56,048 nt of DNA from the NCBI GenBank assembly GCA_045592865.1, contig JAZNVP010000015.1, positions 1-56,048 on the forward strand. Reading direction: 5' to 3'. Shown piece after piece: positions 907 through 52,725 of the stretch (within the stretch, counting starts at the first letter, position 1; each line of letters begins with the position of its first letter). Made by a program: the position numbers and the translations under genes. Origin of the DNA: Oscillospiraceae bacterium. GTDB lineage: Bacteria; Bacillota; Clostridia; Oscillospirales; JAGBHD01. Under the pieces are notes generated by a model, which had not been told where the DNA came from, did no database searches, and worked only from the letters and a program-made list of their open reading frames with translations.

Positions 907-2055
907 TTACATAAGCGATTTATAAAGCTCGGTGATCTCTTCAACGCTTGTTTCTCTCGGGTTGCCGGGACGACAAGCATCATCGTAAGCCGACTGAGCA
1001 AGGAAAGGAATATCCTCAGTTTTAACGATCTCTTTAAGATCTGCAGGAATTCCAACGTCTGAAGAAAGCTTCTTAACTGCATCGATAGCAGCCTTTCTGT
1101 ATTCTTCGGTCGTCATATCCTCGGTTCCCTTAACGCCCATAGCTGCGGCAATATATTTATATTTATCACCTGTTGCGGGAGCGTTATATTCCATAACTGT
1201 GGGGAGAATTATAGCGTTTGCAACACCGTGAGGGGTATCGTAAAGAGCGCCGAGAGGATGAGCCATAGAGTGAACTATACCAAGTCCTACGTTAGAAAAG
1301 CCCATACCTGCAACATACTGACCGAGAGCCATTCCCTCTCTTCCCTCTGCCTCGCCGTTAACGGCTGCGCGGAGCGAACGGGCAATGATCTCAATTGCTT
1401 TTAGGTGGAACATATCACTCATTTCCCAAGCACCCTTGGTTATATAACCCTCGATAGCGTGGGTAAGCGCGTCCATACCGGTTGCAGCAGTTAAACCTTT
1501 AGGCATAGTTGACATCATATCGGGGTCAACAACTGCGCAAACAGGAATATCGTGAACGTCAACGCAAACCATCTTTCTGTTCTTCTCTACGTCGGTTATA
1601 ACGTAGTTAATGGTTACCTCTGCTGCGGTTCCTGCAGTTGTGGGAACTGCGATTATCGGAACGCAGGGGTTCTTTGTGGGAGCAACGCCCTCAAGACTTC
1701 TGACGTCAGAAAATTCGGGGTTGGTGATAATGATACCAACTGCTTTAGCGGTATCCATAGAAGAGCCGCCGCCTATTGCAACGATGCAATCTGCTTCACT
1801 TTTCTTAAAGCATTCAACACCTGCTTTTACGTTTTCAATGGTGGGATTGGGTTTTATTTCAGAAAACATTTCATAATCTACTCCTGCTTTATCTAAAACA
1901 GCAGCAACCTTGCCCGAAACGCCGAACTTTATAAGATCGGGGTCCGACATAACAAGAACCTTCTTAAAGCCTCTTGCCTTAATTTCATCGGGGATAACAT
2001 TAATTGCTCCTGCGCCGTGGTAGGAAGTTTCGTTAAGCACAAAACGGTTGCTCAT
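907..2055 (-). CDS. fucO: Lactaldehyde reductase / 1,2-propanediol oxidoreductase (iron-containing alcohol dehydrogenase)
   Basis: Near full-length resemblance to E. coli FucO (NETSYHGAGA, AIGGGSSMDTAKA, PTTAGTAAEVTINYVITD, GMDALTHAIEGYIT, TPHGVANAI). The ATG at 2055 is preceded by AAAGGAGA. The ORF-track start at 2091 is an in-frame upstream extension. Confidence 0.9.
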   Translation of the reverse strand: MSNRFVLNETSYHGAGAINVIPDEIKARGFKKVLVMSDPDLIKFGVSGKVAAVLDKAGVDYEMFSEIKPNPTIENVKAGVECFKKSEADCIVAIGGGSSMDTAKAVGIIITNPEFSDVRSLEGVAPTKNPCVPIIAVPTTAGTAAEVTINYVITDVEKNRKMVCVDVHDIPVCAVVDPDMMSTMPKGLTAATGMDALTHAIEGYITKGAWEMSDMFHLKAIEIIARSLRAAVNGEAEGREGMALGQYVAGMGFSNVGLGIVHSMAHPLGALYDTPHGVANAIILPTVMEYNAPATGDKYKYIAAAMGVKGTEDMTTEEYRKAAIDAVKKLSSDVGIPADLKEIVKTEDIPFLAQSAYDDACRPGNPRETSVEEITELYKSLM

Positions 2056-2133
2056 TTTAATTTCTCCTTTGATTAAAAAATTTTTCGGCAAACACCTGCC
2101 TTATTTTCAACATAACACAAGATTGTTAAAAAA

Positions 2134-3390
2134 TCAACAATTATTTTTTTGCATACCGAAAACCGTCCCCGGAAGTGTTCTAACATTATTTACGCTCATC
2201 GGCACCCCGATATCCCCCATAATCGAGGCGGCAAACACCGCTTTTCCCCCAAATCTGCGGCGAAGACCGTCCACCGCCGCCATTACCCTCTCGTTTGCTT
2301 CTATCTTTTTATAGCTAAAAAAAAGATCAGTCTGAAGAGGTCTGTTTCCATCCATTAAATTTATCGCGCGGACCGTTATAGCCCTCACAGGCAGAGGGAA
2401 ACTGAAGTTTTTTCTGAATATCTCCCCCGCCGCATCGGCGATAAGCTTTTCGGAATTGGTTGAAAACCCGATGGGGCTTTGAAACTCTCTTACTAAAAGG
2501 TCTTTTGTTTTAACCGCTATCTGCAAGGAAGAAGCCTTAAGCGAATGATCAATAAGCCGCTTCGATACGTCCTGCGAAAGATAAAGCATAACCTTATACA
2601 CCTCTTCCCAGTTATACAGGTCGCGGGTGCAGGTAATTCCGTGGCCGATAGATTTTATGGGCGGCAGATAATTTTCCTCGGTAACCGCCGAATTTTCAAG
2701 ACCGTTAGCAAACGCCCAGAGCGTTCGTCCGTTTTTCCCAAACTCACGCGCCATTATTTCAGGTGGAGTTTTCGCTAATTCCCCGATAGTCTTTATTCCC
2801 ATTTTCAAAAGTCTTCTTTCGGTTGCCCTGCCTATACCTAAAAGGTCTGATGCAGGTTTCGGCCACACCTTCGCTTTGAAATTTTCTTCCGATATCACCG
2901 TTACGGCATCCGGCTTTTTCATATCGGAACCGAGCTTTGCAAATATCTTGTTAAAGCTTACCCCCACCGAAACGGTGAGTCCGAGTTCTCTCTTCATCCT
3001 TTCCCTTATCTTTTCTGCTATCTCCTCGCCCGAACCGAAAAGAAGCCTGCTCCCCGTAACGTCGAGCCAACATTCGTCGAGCCCAAATGGCTCTATCCTG
3101 TCGGTATAATCAGAATAAATTCTTCGCGCCAGTTCGGAATAACGCGCATACCTCTCGTAATGCGGAGGAACGATTATCAGGTCTTTGCACTTCTGCTTTG
3201 CGAGATAGACCGTGTCGCCCGTTTTAATATCGAACCGCTTCGCCTCTTCCGATTTCGCAAGAACTATCCCGTGACGGTCCTCAGTTCTTCCGCATACCGC
3301 AACAGGCTTCCCCCGAAGAGACGGATCGTATATCGCCTCAACCGAAGCGAAACAGTTGTTCATATCGCAGTGCAAAATAACCCTTCCCAC
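2134..3390 (-). CDS. dinB: DNA polymerase IV (Y-family translesion polymerase)
   Basis: N-terminus RVILHCDMNNCFASVE, then DECWLDVTG, and little-finger-type C-terminal length. GTG start with AAAGGGG upstream. Confidence 0.9.
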   Translation of the reverse strand: MGRVILHCDMNNCFASVEAIYDPSLRGKPVAVCGRTEDRHGIVLAKSEEAKRFDIKTGDTVYLAKQKCKDLIIVPPHYERYARYSELARRIYSDYTDRIEPFGLDECWLDVTGSRLLFGSGEEIAEKIRERMKRELGLTVSVGVSFNKIFAKLGSDMKKPDAVTVISEENFKAKVWPKPASDLLGIGRATERRLLKMGIKTIGELAKTPPEIMAREFGKNGRTLWAFANGLENSAVTEENYLPPIKSIGHGITCTRDLYNWEEVYKVMLYLSQDVSKRLIDHSLKASSLQIAVKTKDLLVREFQSPIGFSTNSEKLIADAAGEIFRKNFSFPLPVRAITVRAINLMDGNRPLQTDLFFSYKKIEANERVMAAVDGLRRRFGGKAVFAASIMGDIGVPMSVNNVRTLPGTVFGMQKNNC

Positions 3391-3409
3391 TCCGCGATTC
3401 CCCTTTCTA

Positions 3410-3438
3410 TTGACATATCGGAATTTCCGTTATATAAT
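3410..3438 (+). promoter_or_regulatory. Consensus sigma-A promoter for xre-immA (TTGACA-17-TATAAT)
   Basis: TTGACA at 3410-3415, exactly 17 nt spacer, TATAAT at 3433-3438. Confidence 0.7.
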
Positions 3439-3463
3439 AAATGTGCAACTTACTTGCGCATTT
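3439..3463. promoter_or_regulatory. Dyad-symmetric operator candidate between the two -10 boxes
   Basis: AAATGtGCAAcTtAcTTGCgCATTT has 20 of 24 symmetric positions, centred on 3451. The half-site ACTTGCG recurs at 3478-3484 (AGTTGCG) and, inverted, at 3501-3507 (CGCAAGT). Confidence 0.55.
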
Positions 3464-3492
3464 ATTATAGGAAATTAAGTTGCGCTTGTCAA
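3464..3492 (-). promoter_or_regulatory. Consensus sigma-A promoter for dinB (TTGACA-17-TATAAT on the minus strand)
   Basis: The minus strand reads TTGACA (3492-3487), 17 nt spacer, TATAAT (3469-3464). It faces the xre promoter. Confidence 0.7.
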
Positions 3493-3526
3493 GAGTTTTA
3501 CGCAAGTTATTTTCGGAGGAAATTTT

Positions 3527-3928
3527 ATGAAATTTTGCGAAAAGGTTAAAATGCTCAGAGAAAAAGCAGGGCTCACTCAAAAACAGTTAGCCGAAGAGAT
3601 AGGTGTTTCTCTGCGAACCGTTACCAATTACGAGAACGGCTCAAGATATCCGAAGCAAAGAGGAATATACGGGCGCCTTTCTTCTCTTTTAGGGGTGGAG
3701 ATAAACTATCTTTTAACCGAGGACGAGGAGTTTCTCCTTTCTGTCAGCGAAAACTTCGGTGAGAAAAGTGCCGATAAGGCAAATAAGATACTTCTTGAAA
3801 CAAAGGCACTCTTTGCAGGGGGCGAACTTTCTGAAGAGGATGCGAGAGCATTTATCGATGAAATTCAGCGCTGCTATCTCGATTCAAAGGAGCGCGCCCG
3901 CAAATACTCTAATAAAAAAAGCAAATAA
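3527..3928 (+). CDS. XRE-family helix-turn-helix transcriptional repressor
   Basis: N-terminal Cro/C1-type HTH (LREKAGLTQKQLAEEIGVSLRTVTNYENG). RBS GGAGGA lies 7 nt upstream. The gene is paired with a downstream ImmA/IrrE protease gene. Confidence 0.85.
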   Translation: MKFCEKVKMLREKAGLTQKQLAEEIGVSLRTVTNYENGSRYPKQRGIYGRLSSLLGVEINYLLTEDEEFLLSVSENFGEKSADKANKILLETKALFAGGELSEEDARAFIDEIQRCYLDSKERARKYSNKKSK

Positions 3929-4017
3929 TGATTAAGGGAAGTTGAAACGCCTTAACGCGTTTCGACTAACAACAATCATTATAATAAAGGCATAAACAAA
4001 AAAGAGGTGTTTATTCG

Positions 4018-4536
4018 GTGTCGGCAAGATATATCTTTGATACCGCCTGTAAGGTCATAAAAAAATATAACACCCGCGATCCTTATGAACTTCTTGTTCG
4101 TATGGGCGCCGTGGTGAATGAATCTTCTTCCTTTGACAAACTCAAGGGGTGTTGTTTTTATGCCAATCGAACGAGTTACGTTATTTATAACGGAAAACTC
4201 GGCGAGTATGAAAAACGGGTAGTTCTTGCCCACGAAGCCGCCCACCTCATTCTTCACAAAGCATCTCTTAAAGCAAGTCCCATAAAGGAAATCTCACTCT
4301 ACGGCGCAGAAAATCTTCTGGAATACGAAGCCAATATGTTTGCCGCCGATTTTCTTATCCCCGATGAAGCGATAACAGAGATTTCTGACCGTTACGATAT
4401 TTTTGAAATGAGCCGAAAGCTTTATATTTCTCATGAACTTCTTCTCTTCAAACTCACGTCAATGAACAAGCGCGGTTACGGGTTTACCCTCTCGGACGAA
4501 ATAAACAGCAGTTTCTTAAAGAAAGGTGATATATAA
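4018..4536 (+). CDS. ImmA/IrrE-family (COG2856) zinc metalloprotease
   Basis: HEXXH motif (LAHEAAHLILH) followed by EYEANMFAADFLIP, the typical third-ligand/helix motif of this family. GTG start with AAGAGGTG upstream. Confidence 0.8.
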   Translation: MSARYIFDTACKVIKKYNTRDPYELLVRMGAVVNESSSFDKLKGCCFYANRTSYVIYNGKLGEYEKRVVLAHEAAHLILHKASLKASPIKEISLYGAENLLEYEANMFAADFLIPDEAITEISDRYDIFEMSRKLYISHELLLFKLTSMNKRGYGFTLSDEINSSFLKKGDI

Positions 4537-4548
4537 GGGGAATTTTAT

Positions 4549-5514
4549 ATGATAAAAAGTGAACTCATAAATAAACTTCGCAAAATCACCCCCGAAGAAA
4601 AATCAATTCTGGAGGGAAAAGGCATTGATAAAAGCATCTATATGAGCACCTCTTCTAAAGGCGCGATAGACGTTGTTGATTTTTCATACCTCACAGAAAA
4701 GGGTAAACTTATCGATATCCGTCCTCACACAAGGTTCGTCCATTTCCCGAAGCATAGGCATAATTTTGCTGAACTCGTTTATATGTGCGAGGGCAAGACC
4801 ACCCATATAATCGGAGATAAAAGGATAGAACTCTGCGAGGGTGAACTTTTATTCTTAAGCCAGAACTCCATTCAGGAAATTCTCCCCGCAGGTGAAAACG
4901 ATATCGCGGTCAACCTCATTATAAGACCGCAGTTTTTCGAAAAGGTTCTGAAGCTTTTGGGCAGCACGAATAACCTTATCAGCGAATTTCTGATAGGCTG
5001 TCTCGGCGGTAACACCTCTGCCGATTTTCTGCATTTTAAGGTCTCGGGCATTCTCCCCGTTCAGAACCTTATGGAAAATATGATCTGGTCGCTAACAAAC
5101 AACCAGCCCAATAAAAGAAGCATAAACGAAACCACCATGAGTCTTCTGTTTATGCAGCTTCTTAACCTCACCGATAAAATCGATATCGGCAAAGACTCTC
5201 CCGAAGAAAAGATTTTCATTAAGGTTCTCGACTACATAGAGAAAAACTACCGTGACGGGTCTCTCTCGGCTCTTTCGGAGGAACTTGGCATCGAAATATC
5301 GGCTCTTAGCCGTGTTATAAAGAAAATATCGGGGTTGACCTTCACCGAACTTATGAAGAAAAAACGTCTTAATCAAGCCTGTTGGCTTCTTAAGAATACT
5401 AAGTTCTCAATAGACGAGATCGCCTTAAACGTAGGATATGAAAACAAAAGTTATTTCTATCGGATTTTCGAAGAGATTTACGGTAAAACGCCCTCCGCTT
5501 ATAGAAAAGATTAA
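4549..5514 (+). CDS. AraC-family transcriptional regulator (cupin sensor plus HTH); probable rhamnose regulator
   Basis: N-terminal cupin-like segment (HRHNFAELVYMCEG) and C-terminal AraC HTH (VGYENKSYFYRIFEEIYGKTPSAYR). It lies immediately upstream of rhaBAD. Confidence 0.8.
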   Translation: MIKSELINKLRKITPEEKSILEGKGIDKSIYMSTSSKGAIDVVDFSYLTEKGKLIDIRPHTRFVHFPKHRHNFAELVYMCEGKTTHIIGDKRIELCEGELLFLSQNSIQEILPAGENDIAVNLIIRPQFFEKVLKLLGSTNNLISEFLIGCLGGNTSADFLHFKVSGILPVQNLMENMIWSLTNNQPNKRSINETTMSLLFMQLLNLTDKIDIGKDSPEEKIFIKVLDYIEKNYRDGSLSALSEELGIEISALSRVIKKISGLTFTELMKKKRLNQACWLLKNTKFSIDEIALNVGYENKSYFYRIFEEIYGKTPSAYRKD

Positions 5515-5528
5515 AATATTTTCGCAAG

Positions 5529-5569
5529 AAAGGACACTTTTTAAATCAAAAAGGGTCCTTTTATTTTTT
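5529..5569 (+). terminator. Rho-independent terminator after the AraC regulator
   Basis: Long hairpin AAAGGAC...CTTTTT / AAAAAG...GTCCTTT followed by TTATTTTTT. Confidence 0.65.
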
Positions 5570-5606
5570 ATTTGGATATTATATAATCGTTATGAGGTGA
5601 AAGATA

Positions 5607-7004
5607 ATGAAAAGATATTGGTTGGCAGTTGATATCGGCGCTTCAAGCGGACGCCATATCCTTTCTCATATTGAAAACGGAAAACTCGTTACCGAAGAGA
5701 TGCACCGTTTCACTAACGGTATTTCTAAAAATAACGGTCATTTCTATTGGAACACCGATTACCTTTTCTCAGAAATTCTTACAGGTATGAAAAAATGCAC
5801 CGATGCAGGAAAAATCCCCCTCAGCGTTGGTATTGATACCTGGGGAGTTGACTATCTTCTCCTTGACGAAAATGATAACAAGCTCGACGAAGCAGTCGCC
5901 TACCGCGATAGCAGAACCGAAACCATTCCCGAAAAGGTTTTCGAGATCATTCCCGAAAAAGAGCTTTACAATGAAACGGGAATTCAGAAACAAAACTTTA
6001 ACACCATATATCAGTTAATGGCAGATAAACTTTTCCGCCCCGAACTTTTAGAAAAGGCAAAAACAATGCTCTTTATGCCCGACTATCTCCATTTCAGGCT
6101 CTGTGGTGTTAAATGCGCGGAATACACTATTGCGAGCACCTCTCAGCTTTTAAAACCCGATAAGTTCGATTGGCATAAAGACTTAATTAAAAAACTCGGA
6201 CTACCCGAGGATATTTTCCCGCAAATTAAAACACCGGGAACCGTTCTCGGAAGTCTTCTCCCCGAAATAGAAAAAGAGGTCGGATTTAACTGCAAGGTTA
6301 TTATTCCTCCATCTCACGATACTGCCTCTGCCGTTTTGGGAACACCTTTTGCAGACGGGAATATCTATATAAGCTCGGGCACCTGGTCGCTTATGGGTAT
6401 AGAATCCCGAGACGCTATCTGCAGTGAGGAAAGCAGAAACTGCAATCTCACTAACGAGGGCGGATACGAGCACCGCTTCAGATACCTCAAAAACATAATG
6501 GGGCTTTGGATGATTCAGAACGTTAAGCGGGAGCTTTCAGACAAATATTCTTTCTCAGAACTTTGCGAAATGGCAGAAAAGGAAAGTATTTCCTCGGTTG
6601 TTGACTGCAACTCCAATAAATTCTTGGCCCCTGAAAGCATGATAAACGCCGTAAAAGATTTCTGCTTAGAAACAAAGCAAGAGGTTCCCGAAACTCCCGG
6701 CGAAATAGCAAGAGTAATCTATCGAAGCCTTGCTATTTGCTACAAAGACGCGGCTGAACAGATAGAGGAAATAACAGGCAAAACCTTCGGCGGTATAAAC
6801 ATCGTTGGCGGCGGTTCCAACGCCGATTACCTTAACCGCCTTACCGCTCTCTATACGGGTAAGACCGTTTACGCAGGTCCTTCCGAAGCCACCGCGATCG
6901 GCAACATTGCTTGTCAGATAATTGCATCGGGGGATAAAAAAGGCATTGAGGACGTTAGAAAACTTATTGCCGATTCGACTGATATAAAAATTTACAATCC
7001 ATAA
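5607..7004 (+). CDS. rhaB: Rhamnulokinase
   Basis: FGGY-kinase N-terminus (AVDIGASSGRHIL), WGVDY, and matching length. First gene of the rhaB-rhaA-rhaD order. RBS GAGGTGA. Confidence 0.9.
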   Translation: MKRYWLAVDIGASSGRHILSHIENGKLVTEEMHRFTNGISKNNGHFYWNTDYLFSEILTGMKKCTDAGKIPLSVGIDTWGVDYLLLDENDNKLDEAVAYRDSRTETIPEKVFEIIPEKELYNETGIQKQNFNTIYQLMADKLFRPELLEKAKTMLFMPDYLHFRLCGVKCAEYTIASTSQLLKPDKFDWHKDLIKKLGLPEDIFPQIKTPGTVLGSLLPEIEKEVGFNCKVIIPPSHDTASAVLGTPFADGNIYISSGTWSLMGIESRDAICSEESRNCNLTNEGGYEHRFRYLKNIMGLWMIQNVKRELSDKYSFSELCEMAEKESISSVVDCNSNKFLAPESMINAVKDFCLETKQEVPETPGEIARVIYRSLAICYKDAAEQIEEITGKTFGGINIVGGGSNADYLNRLTALYTGKTVYAGPSEATAIGNIACQIIASGDKKGIEDVRKLIADSTDIKIYNP

Positions 7005-7014
7005 AGGAGGCATT

Positions 7015-8265
7015 ATGAATACATATTATAACTACGCAAAAGAGTGTTACGCTAAGATCGGCGTCGATACCGATCTTGCCATCAAAAAGTTAGAAGGCCT
7101 TAAGATCGCCATCCACTGTTGGCAGGGCGACGACGTTACGGGCTTTGACCACGACGGTCCTTTAACCGGCGGAATTCAAACAACCGGTAACTATCCGGGC
7201 AAGGCTTCGACTCCCGAAGAGCTTATGGCGGATATCGACAAGGTTCTCTCCTTGGTTCCCGGTAAGCACAAGATAAATCTCCACGCTTCTTACGCAATCT
7301 TTGAAGAGGGCGAATACGTTGACAGAGACGCTATCGGCCCCCGCCACTTTGAAAGATGGGTTGCGTTTGCTAAAGAGCGCGGGCTCGGTCTTGACTTTAA
7401 CCCCACATTTTTCGCTCATCCCAAGGTTAAGGACGGGCTCACCCTTTCTTCACCCGACGATGAAACACGACGTTTCTGGATAGAACACGGAAAAAGATGC
7501 TTGGAGATTGCAGAGTATTTCGCAACCGAACTTTCTGAGCCCTGCGTTGTTAACTTCTGGATCCCCGACGGATATAAGGATATTCCCTCTGACCGTCTTG
7601 CACCCCGCCGCCGTTTTGCCGAGTCTCTTGACGAGATCTTATCGATAAACTATGACAAAGAAAAGGTTTACGTTGCGCTCGAGTCTAAGGTGTTCGGAAT
7701 CGGCCTTGAGTCGTATACCGTTGGTTCTAATGAGTTCTGCCTCAACTACGCAGCAACAAGAGGGGTTCTCTCCCTTATGGATAACGGCCACTACCATCCC
7801 ACCGAAGTGGTTTCGGATAAGATTCCCTCGCTTCTTCTCTTCAGCGACAAGATAGCGCTTCACATCACCCGTTCGGTCAGATGGGATAGCGACCACGTTG
7901 TTATCTTTGACGACGAAACGAAGGAGATCGCAAAAGAGATTGTCAGAAATGACGCGCTCGACAGAGTCTTTGTTGCGACCGACTATTTTGATGCAAGTAT
8001 TAACCGAATTGCCGCTTGGGTAATCGGACTCAGAAGCGTTCAGAAGGCATTTTTATATGCACTTCTCTGCCCCAATAAAAAACTCCAAGAGCTTCAGGAA
8101 AAAGGAAACTTCACCGAGCTTCTTATGATGCAGGAGGAACTCAAAACCTATCCCTTTGATGCAGTTTGGAAGATGTTCTGCGAAAAGAACGGTGTTGCAG
8201 GAGATGAATCCTGGTTTAAAGAGGTTGAAAAATACGAGAGAGAGGTATTAAGTAATCGTGAATAA
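7015..8265 (+). CDS. rhaA: L-rhamnose isomerase
   Basis: 416 aa with IHCWQGDDV and the HYHPTE metal-site region. RBS AAAGGAGG. Sits between rhaB and rhaD. Confidence 0.9.
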   Translation: MNTYYNYAKECYAKIGVDTDLAIKKLEGLKIAIHCWQGDDVTGFDHDGPLTGGIQTTGNYPGKASTPEELMADIDKVLSLVPGKHKINLHASYAIFEEGEYVDRDAIGPRHFERWVAFAKERGLGLDFNPTFFAHPKVKDGLTLSSPDDETRRFWIEHGKRCLEIAEYFATELSEPCVVNFWIPDGYKDIPSDRLAPRRRFAESLDEILSINYDKEKVYVALESKVFGIGLESYTVGSNEFCLNYAATRGVLSLMDNGHYHPTEVVSDKIPSLLLFSDKIALHITRSVRWDSDHVVIFDDETKEIAKEIVRNDALDRVFVATDYFDASINRIAAWVIGLRSVQKAFLYALLCPNKKLQELQEKGNFTELLMMQEELKTYPFDAVWKMFCEKNGVAGDESWFKEVEKYEREVLSNRE

Positions 8266-48852: not shown

Positions 48853-50184
48853 TTGGCATTTGAAAGCCTATCCGAAAAACTTTCCGCGGCCTTTAAAAAA
48901 CTCAAGTCGAAAGGAAGGCTCACCGAGGCAGATATCAAAGCCTCAATGCGTGAGATAAAACTTTCTCTCCTTGAAGCCGACGTTAACTATAAGGTTGCAA
49001 AGGATTTCGTTGCAGCAGTCAGCGAGAAATGCTTGGGAGCCGATGTCCTCGAAAGTTTAACACCTGCCCAGCAGGTTATAAAAATAGTTAACTCCGAGCT
49101 TATCTCCTTAATGGGCGGAGATAAGGCTCATAAAATAAATTTTGCATCCAAAGGCCCGTCGGTTATAATGATGTGCGGTCTTCAGGGTGCAGGTAAAACG
49201 ACCCATGCGGCTAAACTCGCAAAATATTTTAAGGATAACGAAAAACGCCCCTTGCTCGTCGGATGCGACGTTTATAGACCTGCCGCTATCGATCAGCTCA
49301 AGATCGTCGGTGAAAAAGCAGGTGTCCCCGTTTACGAGGAAGGTCAGGGCAACCCCGTAGAAATAGCGCGTCACGCTGTTTCTCACGCTAAGGACCACGG
49401 AAACGATATCGTTATTCTCGACACCGCGGGCCGCCTTCATATCGACACCGAGCTTATGAATGAGCTTAAAGATATAAAAGCAAAAACCGAGCCGAGCGAG
49501 ATAATCTTAGTGCTCGACGCTATGACCGGTCAGGACGCGGTTAACGTGGCTTCCACCTTCAACGAAGCATTGGGGTTCGATTCCGTTATCCTCACCAAGC
49601 TCGACGGTGATACCCGAGGCGGTGCCGCCCTTTCGATCTTAAGCGTAACGAGTAAGCCGGTAAAATTCGCAGGTATTGGTGAAAAAATAACCGACCTCGA
49701 GCCTTTCCATCCCGAAAGAATGGCTTCAAGAATTTTAGGAATGGGCGATATGCTCACCCTTATCGAAAAAGCCGAAAAGGAATTTGATGAAAAGGAAGCC
49801 TTAAAACTTACCAAAAAGATCAAGGAAAATAAATTCGATCTCAACGATCTTTTAGACCAGATGCAGCAGATAAGAAAAATGGGCTCTATCCAGGATATCC
49901 TCGGAATGATCCCCGGTGCATCTAAAATAAACCCTAACGATATCGATGAGAAAAAGCTTTTCGTTACCGAAGCCGTCATTCAGTCGATGACCAAAAAGGA
50001 AAGAGAAAAGCCCTCTATAATAAATCCTTCAAGGAAAAGAAGAATTGCCGCAGGCAGCGGAACCGAGGTTCAGGACGTTAACAGGGTTTTAAAGCAGTAT
50101 GAACAGATGAATAAAATGTTCAAGCAGATGGGAAAAATGAAGGGCAAAAAAGGAAGATTTAACCCATCAATGTTCGGTATGTAA
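48853..50184 (+). CDS. ffh: Signal recognition particle protein
   Basis: GLQGAGKTT, DTAGR, TKLDGD, and a Met-rich M-domain. TTG start 7 nt after AGGAGG. Confidence 0.95.
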   Translation: MAFESLSEKLSAAFKKLKSKGRLTEADIKASMREIKLSLLEADVNYKVAKDFVAAVSEKCLGADVLESLTPAQQVIKIVNSELISLMGGDKAHKINFASKGPSVIMMCGLQGAGKTTHAAKLAKYFKDNEKRPLLVGCDVYRPAAIDQLKIVGEKAGVPVYEEGQGNPVEIARHAVSHAKDHGNDIVILDTAGRLHIDTELMNELKDIKAKTEPSEIILVLDAMTGQDAVNVASTFNEALGFDSVILTKLDGDTRGGAALSILSVTSKPVKFAGIGEKITDLEPFHPERMASRILGMGDMLTLIEKAEKEFDEKEALKLTKKIKENKFDLNDLLDQMQQIRKMGSIQDILGMIPGASKINPNDIDEKKLFVTEAVIQSMTKKEREKPSIINPSRKRRIAAGSGTEVQDVNRVLKQYEQMNKMFKQMGKMKGKKGRFNPSMFGM

Positions 50185-50238
50185 TCCAAATTGGATTCAG
50201 ATATAAAAATTTTTAATCACTTTTGGGGGTGAATTATT

Positions 50239-50481
50239 ATGGCAGTTAAAATCAGACTTCGCAGAATGGGTGCTAAGAAGAATCCTTTCTACAGAATCGT
50301 AGTAGCAGACTCCAGATACCCGAGAGACGGTAGATTTATCGAGGAAATCGGTTATTATGATCCGATGCCCAATCCGTCTGTAGTAAAGGTTGATGCAGAG
50401 AAGGCTAAAAACTGGATCTCAAACGGTGCTCAGCCTACTGATACCGTTAAAGTGCTTCTGAAAAAAGAAGGTATTCTTTAA
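50239..50481 (+). CDS. rpsP: 30S ribosomal protein S16
   Basis: [26 protein letters not shown]. Confidence 0.95.
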
Positions 50482-50520
50482 TCGGTAAGATCGCCGATTA
50501 AGTTCGGCATCCGCAATTTA

Positions 50521-50547
50521 AAAGCCCCTGTTTCTCGGGGCTTTTTA
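50521..50547 (+). terminator. Rho-independent terminator/attenuator after rpsP
   Basis: AAGCCCC / GGGGCTT stem followed by TTTT. Confidence 0.7.
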
Positions 50548-50592
50548 GGACGCCTTTTTATAAAGGCTCATATAGGAAAGGAAACTCTTAAA

Positions 50593-50832
50593 ATGGATAT
50601 GACTAATCTCATTAAAACCATCGCAGAGGGCCTTGTTGACGATAAGAGCGCGGTTAAAGTCACCGCCGACGAACCTAACGAAAACGGTGTCGTTGTTTAC
50701 CATCTTAACGTAGCACCCGATGATATGGGAAGAGTAATCGGAAAGAAAGGCAGAATTGCAAAAGCAATGCGCTCCATTGTTAAAAGCGCCGCTATAAAAA
50801 ATAACGTGTCTGTCTTGGTCGAGATTGACTAA
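50593..50832 (+). CDS. khpA: KH-domain RNA-binding protein (YlqC/KhpA)
   Basis: LNVAPDDMGRVIGKKGRIAKAMRSIVKSAA (GxxG KH motif), 79 aa, located downstream of rpsP. Confidence 0.85.
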   Translation: MDMTNLIKTIAEGLVDDKSAVKVTADEPNENGVVVYHLNVAPDDMGRVIGKKGRIAKAMRSIVKSAAIKNNVSVLVEID

Positions 50833-50836
50833 TCTT

Positions 50837-50862
50837 AAACGGTCGCTCCGGCGGCCGTTTTT
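50837..50862 (+). terminator. Rho-independent terminator after khpA
   Basis: AAACGGTCGC / GCGGCCGTTT stem followed by TT(C)ATT. Confidence 0.7.
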
Positions 50863-50874
50863 CATTAGAAAGGA

Positions 50875-51492
50875 ATGGAGTTTATGTCTTCTAAGGAAGA
50901 ATTGAAAGTTGAAGCCGAAGCCTTTTTCGGAGAATTCAAAAAGGTTCAGAAAGAATATAATCGCCTTATGGCTCTCCGCGAGGAGAAATTAGGGGTCCTC
51001 GGATATATAAGCTATGCCACGCTTTTCGTAGGCGTTATGGCACTTGTAGCGCTAAGAATAAACAGCTTCAAGGGAGCGTATCTCTATATCCTTATAGGTG
51101 CCCTCGTCGCCGCTTCTGCTATTTATATCCTCGTAAGCCAGATATTTATCGGTATATACGAGAAAAAAGGCAAGAAGAAAAGGGATAAGGAATTTTCCGA
51201 AATAAAGACGCAGTATAATAAACTCCTCAGTAAAAGAGACTTCTACCTCGCCCTCAAAGAATGCGATTTCGACGAAGAAAAAGCGGCTAAACTTATAAAG
51301 GACAGAGCCGCCGCCGAAAAACAGAGAAAGGCAGAAGAAAAACAAAAAAGAACCGTCGTTAAAAATAGGTTCGACGATAGCGTATGTGTTTACTGTAAAA
51401 AAGGCATCTGTAACTTTGAGGCAGACGAAACGGTTTACTCCTTCAGATGTAACCCCGAAAACTGCCAGTGGAAAAGCAATAAAAAACTGTAA
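50875..51492 (+). CDS. Hypothetical membrane protein: two TM helices, a Lys/Glu-rich coiled segment and a C-terminal Cys-rich (zinc-ribbon-like) tail
   Basis: TM segments VLGYISYATLFVGVMALVAL and AYLYILIGALVAASAIYILVSQIFIGI. C-terminal CVYCKKGIC-x13-C-x5-C. No family recognised. The start could be either 50875 or 50884. Confidence 0.5.
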   Translation: MEFMSSKEELKVEAEAFFGEFKKVQKEYNRLMALREEKLGVLGYISYATLFVGVMALVALRINSFKGAYLYILIGALVAASAIYILVSQIFIGIYEKKGKKKRDKEFSEIKTQYNKLLSKRDFYLALKECDFDEEKAAKLIKDRAAAEKQRKAEEKQKRTVVKNRFDDSVCVYCKKGICNFEADETVYSFRCNPENCQWKSNKKL

Positions 51493-51497
51493 GCGCG

Positions 51498-51710
51498 GTG
51501 TCCGATATGATAAAATTAAATGCTTTAGAATTGCTCCGTAAAAACGGCAAAACAAAATACTGGCTTTATAAACAGCTCGGTATGAGTTATCAGAATTTCA
51601 GCAGAATGGTAAACAACCAGACAAAATCCATAAGATACGAAAACATCGAAACAATGTGTCTGCTTTTCGGTTGCACACCTAACGAGCTTTTCACAATAAC
51701 AGAAGACTAA
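51498..51710 (+). CDS. Small XRE/Cro-type helix-turn-helix protein
   Basis: KYWLYKQLGMSYQNFSRMVNNQTKSIRYENIETMCLLFGCTPNELF. It begins 5 nt after the preceding ORF. The RBS is weak. An ATG at 51507 is an alternative start. Confidence 0.6.
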   Translation: MSDMIKLNALELLRKNGKTKYWLYKQLGMSYQNFSRMVNNQTKSIRYENIETMCLLFGCTPNELFTITED

Positions 51711-51748
51711 AAAACTCCCGAAAGGTTAAAAACTTTCGGGAGTTTTTT
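51711..51748. terminator. Bidirectional rho-independent terminator
   Basis: AAAACTCCCGAAAG / CTTTCGGGAGTTTT, between convergent genes. Confidence 0.85.
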
Positions 51749-51751
51749 AAA

Positions 51752-51949
51752 TTATTTACCTAAAAATTCGTTAAGCTTTGCAACGAAATCGTCAGCGTCA
51801 ACGCCGTGAACCGCACAAGCGTCCTCTATTGATTCTCCTCTTGCGGAAGGACAACCCAAGCAGTGCATTCCCATCTCAAAGAAAAGGGGTGCAGTTTCGG
51901 GCGCCATATCAAGAACCGAGCCAACGACCATATCCTTTGTTATCTCCAT
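51752..51949 (-). CDS. DUF1858-type small redox-disulfide domain protein
   Basis: 65 aa with MHCLGCP, as in the hybrid-cluster-protein-associated redox disulfide domain. Confidence 0.6.
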   Translation of the reverse strand: MEITKDMVVGSVLDMAPETAPLFFEMGMHCLGCPSARGESIEDACAVHGVDADDFVAKLNEFLGK

Positions 51950-52725
51950 TTTTCATTTCTCCTTTCCTTCATTTTATTTTCAGCTGCGTTTCTACCCTTT
52001 AATGCGGCAGTTCGCAAAGCAATGATCTCTTCTTTTTTGAGCATTCTGTAGTTACCCGGAGAAAGCATTCCGAGTTTAACAGGTCCCTCAGCAAACCTTT
52101 TAAGACGGACAACCGTTAAATTCTGGCTTTCGCACATCTTTCTTATCTCTCGGTTTCTTCCCTCGGTTAAAATAAATTCCATAACCGTTCTGTTTTCAGA
52201 CGTATCGTCAATAACGTGAATGGTTGCAGGGGCGGTTTTTCTACCGTCTATTTCAACGCCAACCGAAAGATTAACAATCTGCTCTTCGGTAACCTTCTCT
52301 CTGACTGTAACCCTGTAATGCTTCTTAATATTGCTTTTCGGATGCATTATAAGGTTTGCAAACTCGCCGTCGTTAGTCATAAGAAGAAGTCCCTCGGAGT
52401 CCTTGTCAAGCCTTCCGATAGGATAAACCCTCTCACCGAGATCGCTAACAAGCTCTGCAACGCATTTCCTGTCCATCTCGTCCTTAAGGGTGGTAACGTA
52501 TCCCCTCGGCTTGTAAAGCATTAAATAAATAAACTGCTTTTTCTTTTCAAAATATATTCTTTCCCCCGATACCGCTATAATATCACGATTGGGGTCTGCC
52601 TTATCGCCTAATTGGGTAGGTCTTCCGTTAACCGTAACCTTCCCTGCCGAAATAAGTTCTTCCGCCTTTCTTCTCGAGCAGTATCCCGATAAAGAAAGAA
52701 GCTTCTGAAGCCTTTCTGCTGCCAT
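51940..52725 (-). CDS. rluB: Pseudouridine synthase, RsuA/RluB family
   Basis: S4 domain (RLQKLLSLSGYCSRRKAEELI) and catalytic motif GRLDKDSEGLLLMTNDG. Confidence 0.8.
   Translation of the reverse strand: MAAERLQKLLSLSGYCSRRKAEELISAGKVTVNGRPTQLGDKADPNRDIIAVSGERIYFEKKKQFIYLMLYKPRGYVTTLKDEMDRKCVAELVSDLGERVYPIGRLDKDSEGLLLMTNDGEFANLIMHPKSNIKKHYRVTVREKVTEEQIVNLSVGVEIDGRKTAPATIHVIDDTSENRTVMEFILTEGRNREIRKMCESQNLTVVRLKRFAEGPVKLGMLSPGNYRMLKKEEIIALRTAALKGRNAAENKMKERRNEKWR

Follow-up and report, generated by a model that had tools for sequence, protein, structure and literature searches.

How is the gene of an error-prone DNA polymerase kept in check when it shares a short intergenic region with a repressor gene, and the two promoters in that region are both perfect and point at each other? 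This question is raised by a locus of an Oscillospiraceae bacterium (assembly GCA_045592865.1), which was analysed within positions 1 to 56,048 of contig JAZNVP010000015.1; this whole stretch of 56,048 bases is referred to as the window. In it, dinB, a gene for DNA polymerase IV (Pol IV), lies divergent from xre and immA, which encode a repressor of the XRE family and a putative anti-repressor protease. Our reading, to which we give a probability of roughly 0.68, is that dinB and xre-immA form a self-contained cassette in which a repressor/protease switch of the ImmR/ImmA type has been domesticated to control Pol IV without LexA. The observations behind it are the elements of the intergenic region and their conservation, the covariation of operators with the recognition helix of Xre, the families of the three gene products and the status of the trio as a chromosomal unit under selection.

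The first-pass annotation had described the two promoters as a face-to-face pair of perfect consensus sequences. All of its coordinates and hexamers were exact, and both promoters received the full score in a promoter scan. The promoters and the ribosome-binding sites are as follows (nt, nucleotides).

3410-3438, plus strand: xre promoter (Pxre), TTGACA at 3410-3415, 17 nt, TATAAT at 3433-3438; score 12/12; predicted start at about 3445; leader of about 82 nt to the xre ATG.
3492-3464, minus strand: dinB or cargo promoter (PdinB), TTGACA at 3492-3487, 17 nt, TATAAT at 3469-3464; score 12/12; predicted start at about 3457; leader of about 67 nt to the dinB GTG.
3399-3405, minus strand: predicted dinB ribosome-binding site, AAGGGGA, about 9 nt before the GTG, as read from the sequence.
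3515-3519, plus strand: xre ribosome-binding site, GGAGG, kept in the alignment with the 70% relatives described below.

The -10 hexamers (TATAAT at 3433-3438 and ATTATA at 3464-3469) are separated by 25 nt, and the predicted starts lie about 12 nt apart, so that the 5' ends of the transcripts would overlap by about 13 nt. A consensus scan found no perfect promoters in the window other than these two, and base composition predicts about 0.016 perfect promoters and about 4e-8 face-to-face pairs per window. When one mismatch was allowed, five promoter matches were found in the window, compared to 0.23 expected from shuffles. The leftward promoter is assigned to dinB, whose start codon is a mere 19 nt away from the xre -35, which leaves dinB no other promoter site. 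The central dyad proposed earlier, with its centre at 3451, was confirmed as an inverted repeat with arms of 16 nt each (3433-3448 and 3454-3469) that are 94% complementary and have 5 nt between them. Its axis stands out as the best in the region, with 29 of 51 positions pairing versus about 25-30% at other axes. GGAAATT/AATTTCC repeats were also considered as part of this symmetry and were rejected, being 2 nt off the axis with one copy in the ribosome-binding-site region.

The arrangement belongs to a large family. Xre has 525 full-length homologues, hundreds of them at about 50% identity. The locus set, with one genome per species, comprised 80 loci (cited by L number), mostly from Clostridia and including Oscillospiraceae, Lachnospiraceae, Ruminiclostridium, Sedimentibacter and Tissierella; with the window added, 81 sequences were compared. 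A pair of the form TTGACA-17-TAnnAT, gap, ATTATA-17-TGTCAA was found upstream of xre in 76 of them, which agrees with the first-pass view that the rightward promoter serves xre-immA and the leftward one dinB. Family members share only 46-56% identity with the Xre of the window, and the spacers outside the hexamers are unalignable between lineages. In 55 of the 68 unique modules, the -10 hexamers are 25-28 nt apart. The cargo-side (leftward) promoter scored 12/12 in 61 of the 68 and the xre promoter in only 3, being usually one base off in the -10. Directly after xre, nearly all 80 loci have a gene for an M78 protease.

Within each locus, one half-site recurs on both strands at about +11, +34/+44, +62/+72 and about +93 from the xre -35. 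Four 17-bp dyads of the form 6-N5-6 were defined on this basis: O1 in the xre spacer, O2 after the xre -10 at an offset of 4 nt that is constant across the family, O3 in the cargo spacer and O4 in the xre leader, upstream of the cargo -35. The dyad at the O3 position begins at the last base of ATTATA family-wide and is often perfect (e.g. ACGCAAttaagTTGCGT in L002/L003), and a half-site at about +91 to +93, corresponding to O4, is present in many members. Repetition of the half-site exceeded that of shuffles in 41 of the 68 modules (p<=0.05). The half-site differs between lineages in step with helix 3 of Xre, as listed here.

ACGCAA half-site: helix 3 VSLRT[VI][TS]NYE.
AGGCAA half-site: helix 3 VSLRTVRGWE.
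ATGAAG or ATGCAG half-site: helix 3 VSLRT[VI]ISYE.
ATGCAA half-site: helix 3 ISLRTVNYYE.
GAAG/CTTC-type half-site (GTGAAG-ttgaa-CTTCAC in L025): helix 3 VSAR/VSGR-SVA-YE.
GTGAAA half-site (most loci of the group): helix 3 VS[KI]RTIINYE.

Such covariation is the pattern expected if Xre reads these sites. It also bears on the idea that the dyad is a chance palindrome, a site for LexA or another host regulator, or an RNA element instead of an Xre operator, which we regard as extremely improbable. The AT-richness of the region is all that speaks for it. The covariation with the Xre helix does not fit this idea, and neither does the minute number of such promoter pairs expected per window. Furthermore, there was no match to the LexA box (CGAAC-N4-GTTCG, up to two mismatches) in 3391-3526, both leaders folded no better than shuffles (z = -0.13 and -1.51) and Rfam had no match within the intergenic region.

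Three of the four dyads were located in the window and are designated putative Xre operators, given their family-conserved positions and a half-site that covaries with the recognition helix as expected.

3443-3459, no strand assigned: operator O2, GTGCAA-cttac-TTGCGC, a 17-bp 6-N5-6 dyad centred at 3451 that covers both predicted starts.
3469-3485, no strand assigned: operator O3, AGGAAA-ttaag-TTGCGC, within the PdinB spacer; left half degenerate.
3500-3516, no strand assigned: operator O4, ACGCAA-gttat-TTTCGG, upstream of the PdinB -35 in the xre leader, abutting the xre ribosome-binding site.

O2 is the sole perfect match to YGCAA-N5-TTGCR in 56 kb, and O4 has one mismatch to the operator pattern. 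The earlier suggestion that the central dyad is a repressor site acting over both promoters is favoured by its fixed offset, its covariation with the recognition helix and its span across both predicted starts. A second suggestion, that AGTTGCG (3478-3484) and CGCAAGT (3501-3507) form an inverted pair around the dinB -35, was correct as to the two sequences but not as to a single dyad. AGTTGCG is the right half of O3 and CGCAAGT the left half of O4, and these separate 17-bp operators are both conserved in position in relatives. CGGAA-T-TTCCG (3419-3429), in the xre spacer, was considered as a fourth operator. It is shifted, unlike the half-site and not kept in the 70% relatives, and it was set aside as absent or chance. 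A wider regulon was looked for within the window, and one-mismatch operator matches elsewhere in the 56 kb were at chance level.

The proteins encoded by the trio were characterised next to these sites.

2134-3390, minus strand: dinB-like gene for a Y-family DNA polymerase IV, 418 amino acids (aa), GTG start; Pfam IMS, IMS_C and IMS_HHH_1.
3527-3928, plus strand: xre, XRE-family repressor of 133 aa; Pfam HTH_3, E 6.2e-13.
4018-4536, plus strand: immA, M78/COG2856 zinc metallopeptidase of 172 aa and putative anti-repressor protease; Pfam Peptidase_M78, E 1.6e-13.

The best NCBIfam matches of DinB are DNA polymerase IV models, including one equivalog model above its cutoff, and the catalytic motifs HCDMNN and GLDE are seen in the translation. 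The AlphaFold model of Xre (pLDDT 88.8) has a helix-turn-helix (HTH) domain at its N terminus and three C-terminal helices, and the sequence LFAGGE (residues 94-100), which is invariant in the family alignment, forms a loop between the last two helices of the model. The N-terminal domain matched the DNA-binding domain of ImmR (7t8i) with a Foldseek TM of 0.88 and a root-mean-square deviation of 1.1 Å, and a sequence search of the PDB gave a match at E 9e-6. It also superposes on the DNA-binding domains of P22 c2, CapH and DdrO. The full-length model had weak matches to Stl, the phage phi106 repressor and DdrO, and no S24 domain was found in Xre by the Pfam scan. In ImmA, HEAAH (72-76) and E102 are invariant in the family alignment. 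The ImmA model (pLDDT 86) contains the protease domain only, with a tail that is disordered from residue 160. Its best structural matches are PprI/IrrE of Deinococcus, including the complex with single-stranded DNA (ssDNA) 8sln, and CapP, and it aligns to part of these chains of 240-280 residues. In length, the window protein is closer to ImmA of ICEBs1 than to IrrE or CapP. A PDB sequence search with ImmA gave one weak match only.

The cargo under the leftward promoter varies among the 81 sequences. It is a DinB homologue in 30. In 31 loci a protein of about 189 aa takes this place, with a sigma-70 region-4 protein encoded after it, and both have matches to phage families: phrog_1558 and phrog_248 ("transcriptional activator") for the first and "RNA polymerase sigma factor" for its sigma-like partner. 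The two probably act as master activators in an uncharacterised family of phages or integrative and conjugative elements (ICEs) of gut Clostridia. DinB and activator/sigma cargo are interleaved in the Xre protein tree, which indicates that the switch is portable. The loci of the second type are given in one line.

Activator/sigma cargo, 31 loci (e.g. L018 2150-3787): L013, L017-L020, L022-L024, L026-L028, L030, L031, L035-L037, L041, L045, L049, L050, L053, L057, L060-L062, L064, L069, L073, L074, L076, L078.

A MazF toxin or YhcG nuclease is sometimes encoded near these loci. Several other arrangements were seen alongside. Six dinB loci (L008, L009, L012, L015, L016 and L072) have an extra open reading frame (ORF; beginning MIERYDVNEEWAHSG...) between the promoter module and xre, so that their xre operon begins with another gene and dinB and xre are about 530 bp apart. 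In L014, L021, L042, L043, L056 and L089, an ORF of about 83-95 aa with no Pfam match stands directly after dinB; it is absent from the window and may encode a polymerase accessory factor. L021 and L089 also encode a second, weak M78-like protein (HEGSH motif, below the Pfam cutoff). In the metagenomic loci L091, L097 and L098, dinB is followed by genes for a second HTH protein (123-136 aa), an M78-like protein of larger size (about 260 aa) and a protein of 345 aa without a Pfam match; in these three loci, therefore, two repressor/protease pairs flank the polymerase.

The trio also occurs on mobile elements. The Evtepia phage NatCom_42594 (Ca. Heliusvirales, PV036445.1; L088/L090, record 49682-52000) is a complete temperate gut phage with dinB, xre and immA. 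Its module reads TTGACA-18-TAAGAT-28-ATTATA-17-TGTCAA with CGCAA-type dyads, and its Xre is 46% identical to that of the window. The DinB-like gene heads a leftward operon that runs into genes for a replicative polymerase and a helicase, with xre and immA on its right. Annotation of the region goes no further than "transcriptional repressor" and "DNA polymerase". The M78 gene (L088 4444-4983, plus strand, HELGH motif) is unannotated; the record has a "hypothetical protein" called on the strand opposite immA and a 41-aa ORF called over the promoter region. No functional description of this immunity region was found, and it goes unmentioned in the Heliusvirales paper (PMC11283538). An ICE-like tet(40) region of Monoglobus pectinilyticus has this module and trio as well.

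The DinB protein itself belongs to a subfamily of at least 8000 clusters (E<=1e-30). All six members that were sampled (about 55-67% identity), including the isolate Sporotomaculum syntrophicum, have a divergent HTH_3 and M78 pair, and the promoters are face-to-face in those sampled relatives whose DNA was read. These findings bear on the possibility that the COG2856/Xre pair is toxin-antitoxin-like, in which Xre would act only as an antitoxin that regulates its own gene, ImmA as a toxin or as a stress protease directed at other targets, and dinB would be a neighbour by coincidence. COG2856-Xre pairs have been predicted to be of this kind (PMC2701414), and a Brucella pair has been studied in this light (PMC10538038). 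Against this stand the consensus promoter toward a divergent cargo and the operators in its spacer, which are conserved in the family whatever the cargo, as well as the retention of the pair in all six subfamily members and the phage's leftward promoter, which heads an early replication operon. We consider this explanation improbable, even slightly more so than the one taken up in the next paragraph.

That explanation is that the locus is a prophage or ICE fossil, a leftover immunity region without host function in which the promoters and dyads have not yet decayed. It would account for the fact that a complete temperate phage and an ICE-like tet(40) region both have this module and trio, for the phage-like activator and sigma genes under the same switch in 31 loci and for the interleaving of cargo types in the Xre tree. 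The chromosomal setting of the window copy points the other way. Its neighbours are as follows.

907-2091, minus strand: lactaldehyde reductase, fucO.
4549-5514: AraC-type regulator (rhaR), 12 nt after immA.
5607-7004: rhamnulokinase (rhaB).
7015-8265: ORF of 416 aa, presumed rhaA by position.

The trio sits between fucO and rhaR/rhaB, within an apparent rhamnose-utilisation locus (window 907-8265), and no integrase or phage genes are adjacent. Metagenomic contigs with an Xre of 70% identity have the same gene order of dinB, xre, immA, AraC-type regulator and rhamnulokinase, and contigs with a DinB of 67% identity also keep the flanking genes for an iron-containing alcohol dehydrogenase (fucO-like) and the AraC protein. 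The rhamnose-locus placement is kept in the relatives at about 70% (L081, L095). Identity between the window and L081 is 0.71 for dinB, 0.67 for xre, 0.55 for immA, 0.67 for the AraC gene and 0.70 for rhaB, so the flanks are equally diverged. Against L081, dinB has a dN/dS of 0.087, xre one of 0.129 and rhaB one of 0.060, and dS exceeds 2 (saturated). The trio has thus diverged in step with the chromosome under purifying selection, and the cis elements are nearly unchanged. All three ORFs are intact with their catalytic motifs, and both promoters are still 12/12 in three sub-lineages despite the saturation of synonymous sites. Since the genes are intact, synteny is kept and dN/dS is about 0.1, a prophage remnant is unlikely.

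The close relatives also tell which features of the intergenic region are kept. In L081-L083 the alignment again gave 12/12 for both promoters, and O2, O3 and O4 are conserved: a single base of O3 is different in L081/L082, and the 70% relatives have the very same O4. These relatives have an 11-bp insertion between O2 and the dinB -10, which widens the gap to 36 nt. In L095/L096 both sides score 12/12, the gap is 27 and O3 is perfect. Conservation does not extend to the xre spacer in the 70% relatives, from which we conclude that O1 is absent in the window lineage. The first-pass annotation had proposed a check for conservation of the symmetric arrangement in relatives with the same trio. Judged from these alignments, the face-to-face layout and the operators are the features that are kept, but the exact mirror symmetry is peculiar to the window.

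For promoter use, Xre binding, ImmA cleavage, the nature of the signal and promoter competition, ImmR/ImmA, DdrO/IrrE and CapH/CapP serve as models, from which we infer the following course of events. In the resting cell, Xre dimers would occupy O2 (over both starts), O3 (in the dinB spacer) and O4 (upstream of the dinB -35), silencing the consensus-strength PdinB and autoregulating xre. Since O1 is absent in the window lineage, autoregulation would rest on O2 and possibly on roadblocks that O3 and O4 provide. Upon stress, signalled most likely by DNA damage or ssDNA, the ImmA metalloprotease would become active and cut the C-terminal domain of Xre; in the structural model, the invariant loop LFAGGE is the candidate site. 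The cleaved Xre would leave the DNA, and both promoters would open. A switch of phage origin probably keeps the error-prone polymerase silent until stress in this way.

Once open, the two promoters would compete rather than fire together, because an RNA polymerase on one of them would cover the -10 and start of the other when the starts are about 12 nt apart. The locus had been likened in the first-pass annotation to convergent phage switch regions. This likeness is literal, as the Heliusvirales phage has the same module, but interference by collision or a "sitting duck" polymerase, as in promoters of the phage 186 type with their distance of 40-60 bp, would not carry over, and mutual exclusion of RNA polymerase binding is expected instead. 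The perfect cargo promoter and slightly weaker xre promoter of the family mean that the cargo would be favoured upon derepression. It is a matter of speculation that the two perfect promoters of the window lineage may suit a reversible response.

Another possible explanation is that the switch is real and its input is something other than DNA damage, such as phage infection, a peptide, zinc or redox, or a signal from a mobile element resident in the same cell. RapI is linked to the ImmA response of ICEBs1. The ImmA of ICEBs1 also responds to the presence of potential recipients that lack the element (PMC8960796), and IrrE is reported to be activated through zinc and redox signalling (PMC7907104). 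The ImmA of the window is without the extra domain of IrrE and CapP, and some single metagenome-assembled genomes (MAGs) hold several copies with the same operator type, which would also suit a different cue. On the other side, the cargo is a translesion polymerase, and the nearest structural matches of ImmA include the ssDNA-bound PprI and CapP, which is activated by ssDNA (bioRxiv 10.1101/2022.04.27.489752). We regard a different input as unlikely, though less so than any other alternative considered here, and it would alter only the input and not the architecture.

Several points weigh against the reading of the locus as a domesticated ImmR/ImmA-type cassette. The start sites, Xre binding and ImmA cleavage are all predictions. 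The pattern used to find modules required near-consensus hexamers, which somewhat inflates their perfection; an independent scoring scan found the pair in most loci. The correlation between operator and helix is confounded by shared ancestry. The O1 that most family members have in the xre spacer is absent in the window lineage, and O3 and O4 each have one degenerate half. Repetition of the half-site in the window alone is not significant (3 copies, p = 0.19), so the case for the operators rests on the comparison across the family. As ImmA lacks the GAF-like domain of IrrE and CapP, the signal of these proteins cannot be carried over to it. Also, immA may not be simply co-transcribed with xre, given an inverted repeat and a TATAAT in the spacer between them.

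This spacer (3929-4017, 89 nt) contains the inverted repeat GAAACGC-cttaa-GCGTTTC (3944-3963, 7 bp) and TATAAT at 3981-3986, which by their sequence may be a promoter of immA itself or an attenuator. In the 70% relatives there is no spacer, and xre and immA overlap by 4 nt.

Repression of error-prone polymerases is normally the task of LexA or of self-cleaving repressors that resemble it. A large DinB subfamily of Clostridia, including abundant Oscillospiraceae and Lachnospiraceae of the human gut, appears instead to be under the control of a two-protein, phage-type system. Repressor/protease immunity modules, face-to-face promoters with shared operators and phage-type repressors for error-prone polymerases (of the S24 type) are already known. 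What appears to be new is an XRE and M78 module that is dedicated to Pol IV across a whole DinB subfamily, and a rigid scaffold of consensus promoters that is common to chromosomes, phages and ICEs. A full-text literature search found no description of the dinB-xre-immA cassette, which is not proof that none exists. If the cassette responds to DNA damage, it bears on mutation in gut commensals under genotoxic drugs and antibiotics and ties host mutagenesis to the regulatory logic of phages and conjugative elements.

A broader proposal is tentative, and we think it possible but on balance doubtful. A phage immunity switch would have been domesticated in gut and anaerobic Clostridia as a LexA-independent cassette for inducible mutagenesis that travels with the whole DinB subfamily, prophage or ICE induction and host error-prone synthesis would be cross-wired via shared repressors and proteases, and the family would amount to a library of at least 8 orthogonal repressor/operator pairs on one fixed scaffold. 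Cross-wiring would follow from the operator types that copies in the same genome often share (L009 and L022) and from the scaffold common to chromosomal, phage and ICE copies. Head-on consensus promoters with fixed operators and swappable specificity can be tested with reporters, and could provide a useful, tightly repressed and orthogonal expression scaffold for anaerobes as well as a simple model case for competition between overlapping face-to-face promoters.

Two module copies with the same or nearly the same operator type were seen in five genomes or MAGs (L009 and L022 in UMGS108, L010 and L014, L041 and L049, L074 and L076, and L044 and L047). In MAG UMGS108, the dinB copy and the activator/sigma copy both have ACGCAA-N5-TTGCGT, and their Xre proteins are 66% identical. 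Cross-repression between co-resident copies is possible; errors in MAG binning could also explain such pairs.

Among known systems, the cassette resembles ImmR/ImmA of ICEBs1 in Bacillus subtilis and the pairs of cI-like repressor and metalloprotease in phages and ICEs of Firmicutes. In both, an XRE repressor is followed by a co-oriented M78/COG2856 metalloprotease of about 170 aa, and the divergent cargo promoter and the repressor's own promoter share one intergenic region with multiple operators; ImmR binds six sites (PMC8960796). The cargo in the window, however, is a single translesion polymerase and not a set of excision and transfer genes, and this copy is chromosomal rather than on a mobile element, with family members elsewhere on a phage and an ICE-like element. 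Xre and ImmR share little sequence identity, and only in the HTH. The window promoters are face-to-face, with starts about 12 nt apart, and both are consensus.

In Deinococcus, the palindromic site of DdrO is 17 bp, and IrrE (PprI) is not known to be encoded adjacent to ddrO. DdrO/IrrE is like the cassette in having an XRE repressor with an M78 protease, a palindromic repressor site and control of repair genes independent of LexA, and IrrE cleaves DdrO (PMC8072749). IrrE has an added GAF-like domain that is absent from most ImmA-like proteins (PMC8072749). The two systems differ in that DdrO governs a regulon of many genes, whereas the window has an adjacent protease of 172 aa and the sole perfect operator in 56 kb is local. 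The operator sequence in the window also differs from the RDRM (radiation/desiccation response motif).

CapH/CapP likewise consists of an HTH repressor and a metallopeptidase, encoded divergent to their cargo with a shared promoter region. CapP cleaves the C-terminal domain of CapH when activated by ssDNA or DNA damage, and some of these systems include a sigma factor (bioRxiv 10.1101/2022.04.27.489752). The N-terminal domain of CapH and CapP are structural matches to the Xre and ImmA of the window. Unlike the window ImmA, CapP is equipped with a GAF domain and a cysteine switch. CapH has a single conserved binding site, located upstream of the -35, and the cargo is CBASS or another defence system.

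A phage-type repressor dedicated to an error-prone polymerase, and to itself, until DNA damage occurs is also found in HdiR-umuC of streptococci and UmuDAb of Acinetobacter, which are regarded as convergent solutions (PMC8565304). These repressors are self-cleaving S24 proteins triggered by RecA, whereas that of the window has no S24 domain and is encoded with a separate M78 protease.

Promoters that face each other, with regulator sites between or over them, are known from phages of the P2/186 type and from bioA/bioBFCD of Escherichia coli (PMC7498355, PMC5640590). Both promoters of the bio operon share one operator, an inverted repeat (PMC5640590). In P2-like phages the promoters are 40-60 bp apart and elongating polymerases interfere (PMC7498355), in contrast to starts about 12 nt apart in the window, and the proteins are unrelated. 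The Pc/Pr pair of pLS20 was dropped as a comparator, as its promoters coincide back-to-back and do not face each other. Finally, the immunity region of the Heliusvirales phage differs from the window in that its leftward operon continues into replication genes, and it has the same protein family, the same trio and the same scaffold of promoters and operators.

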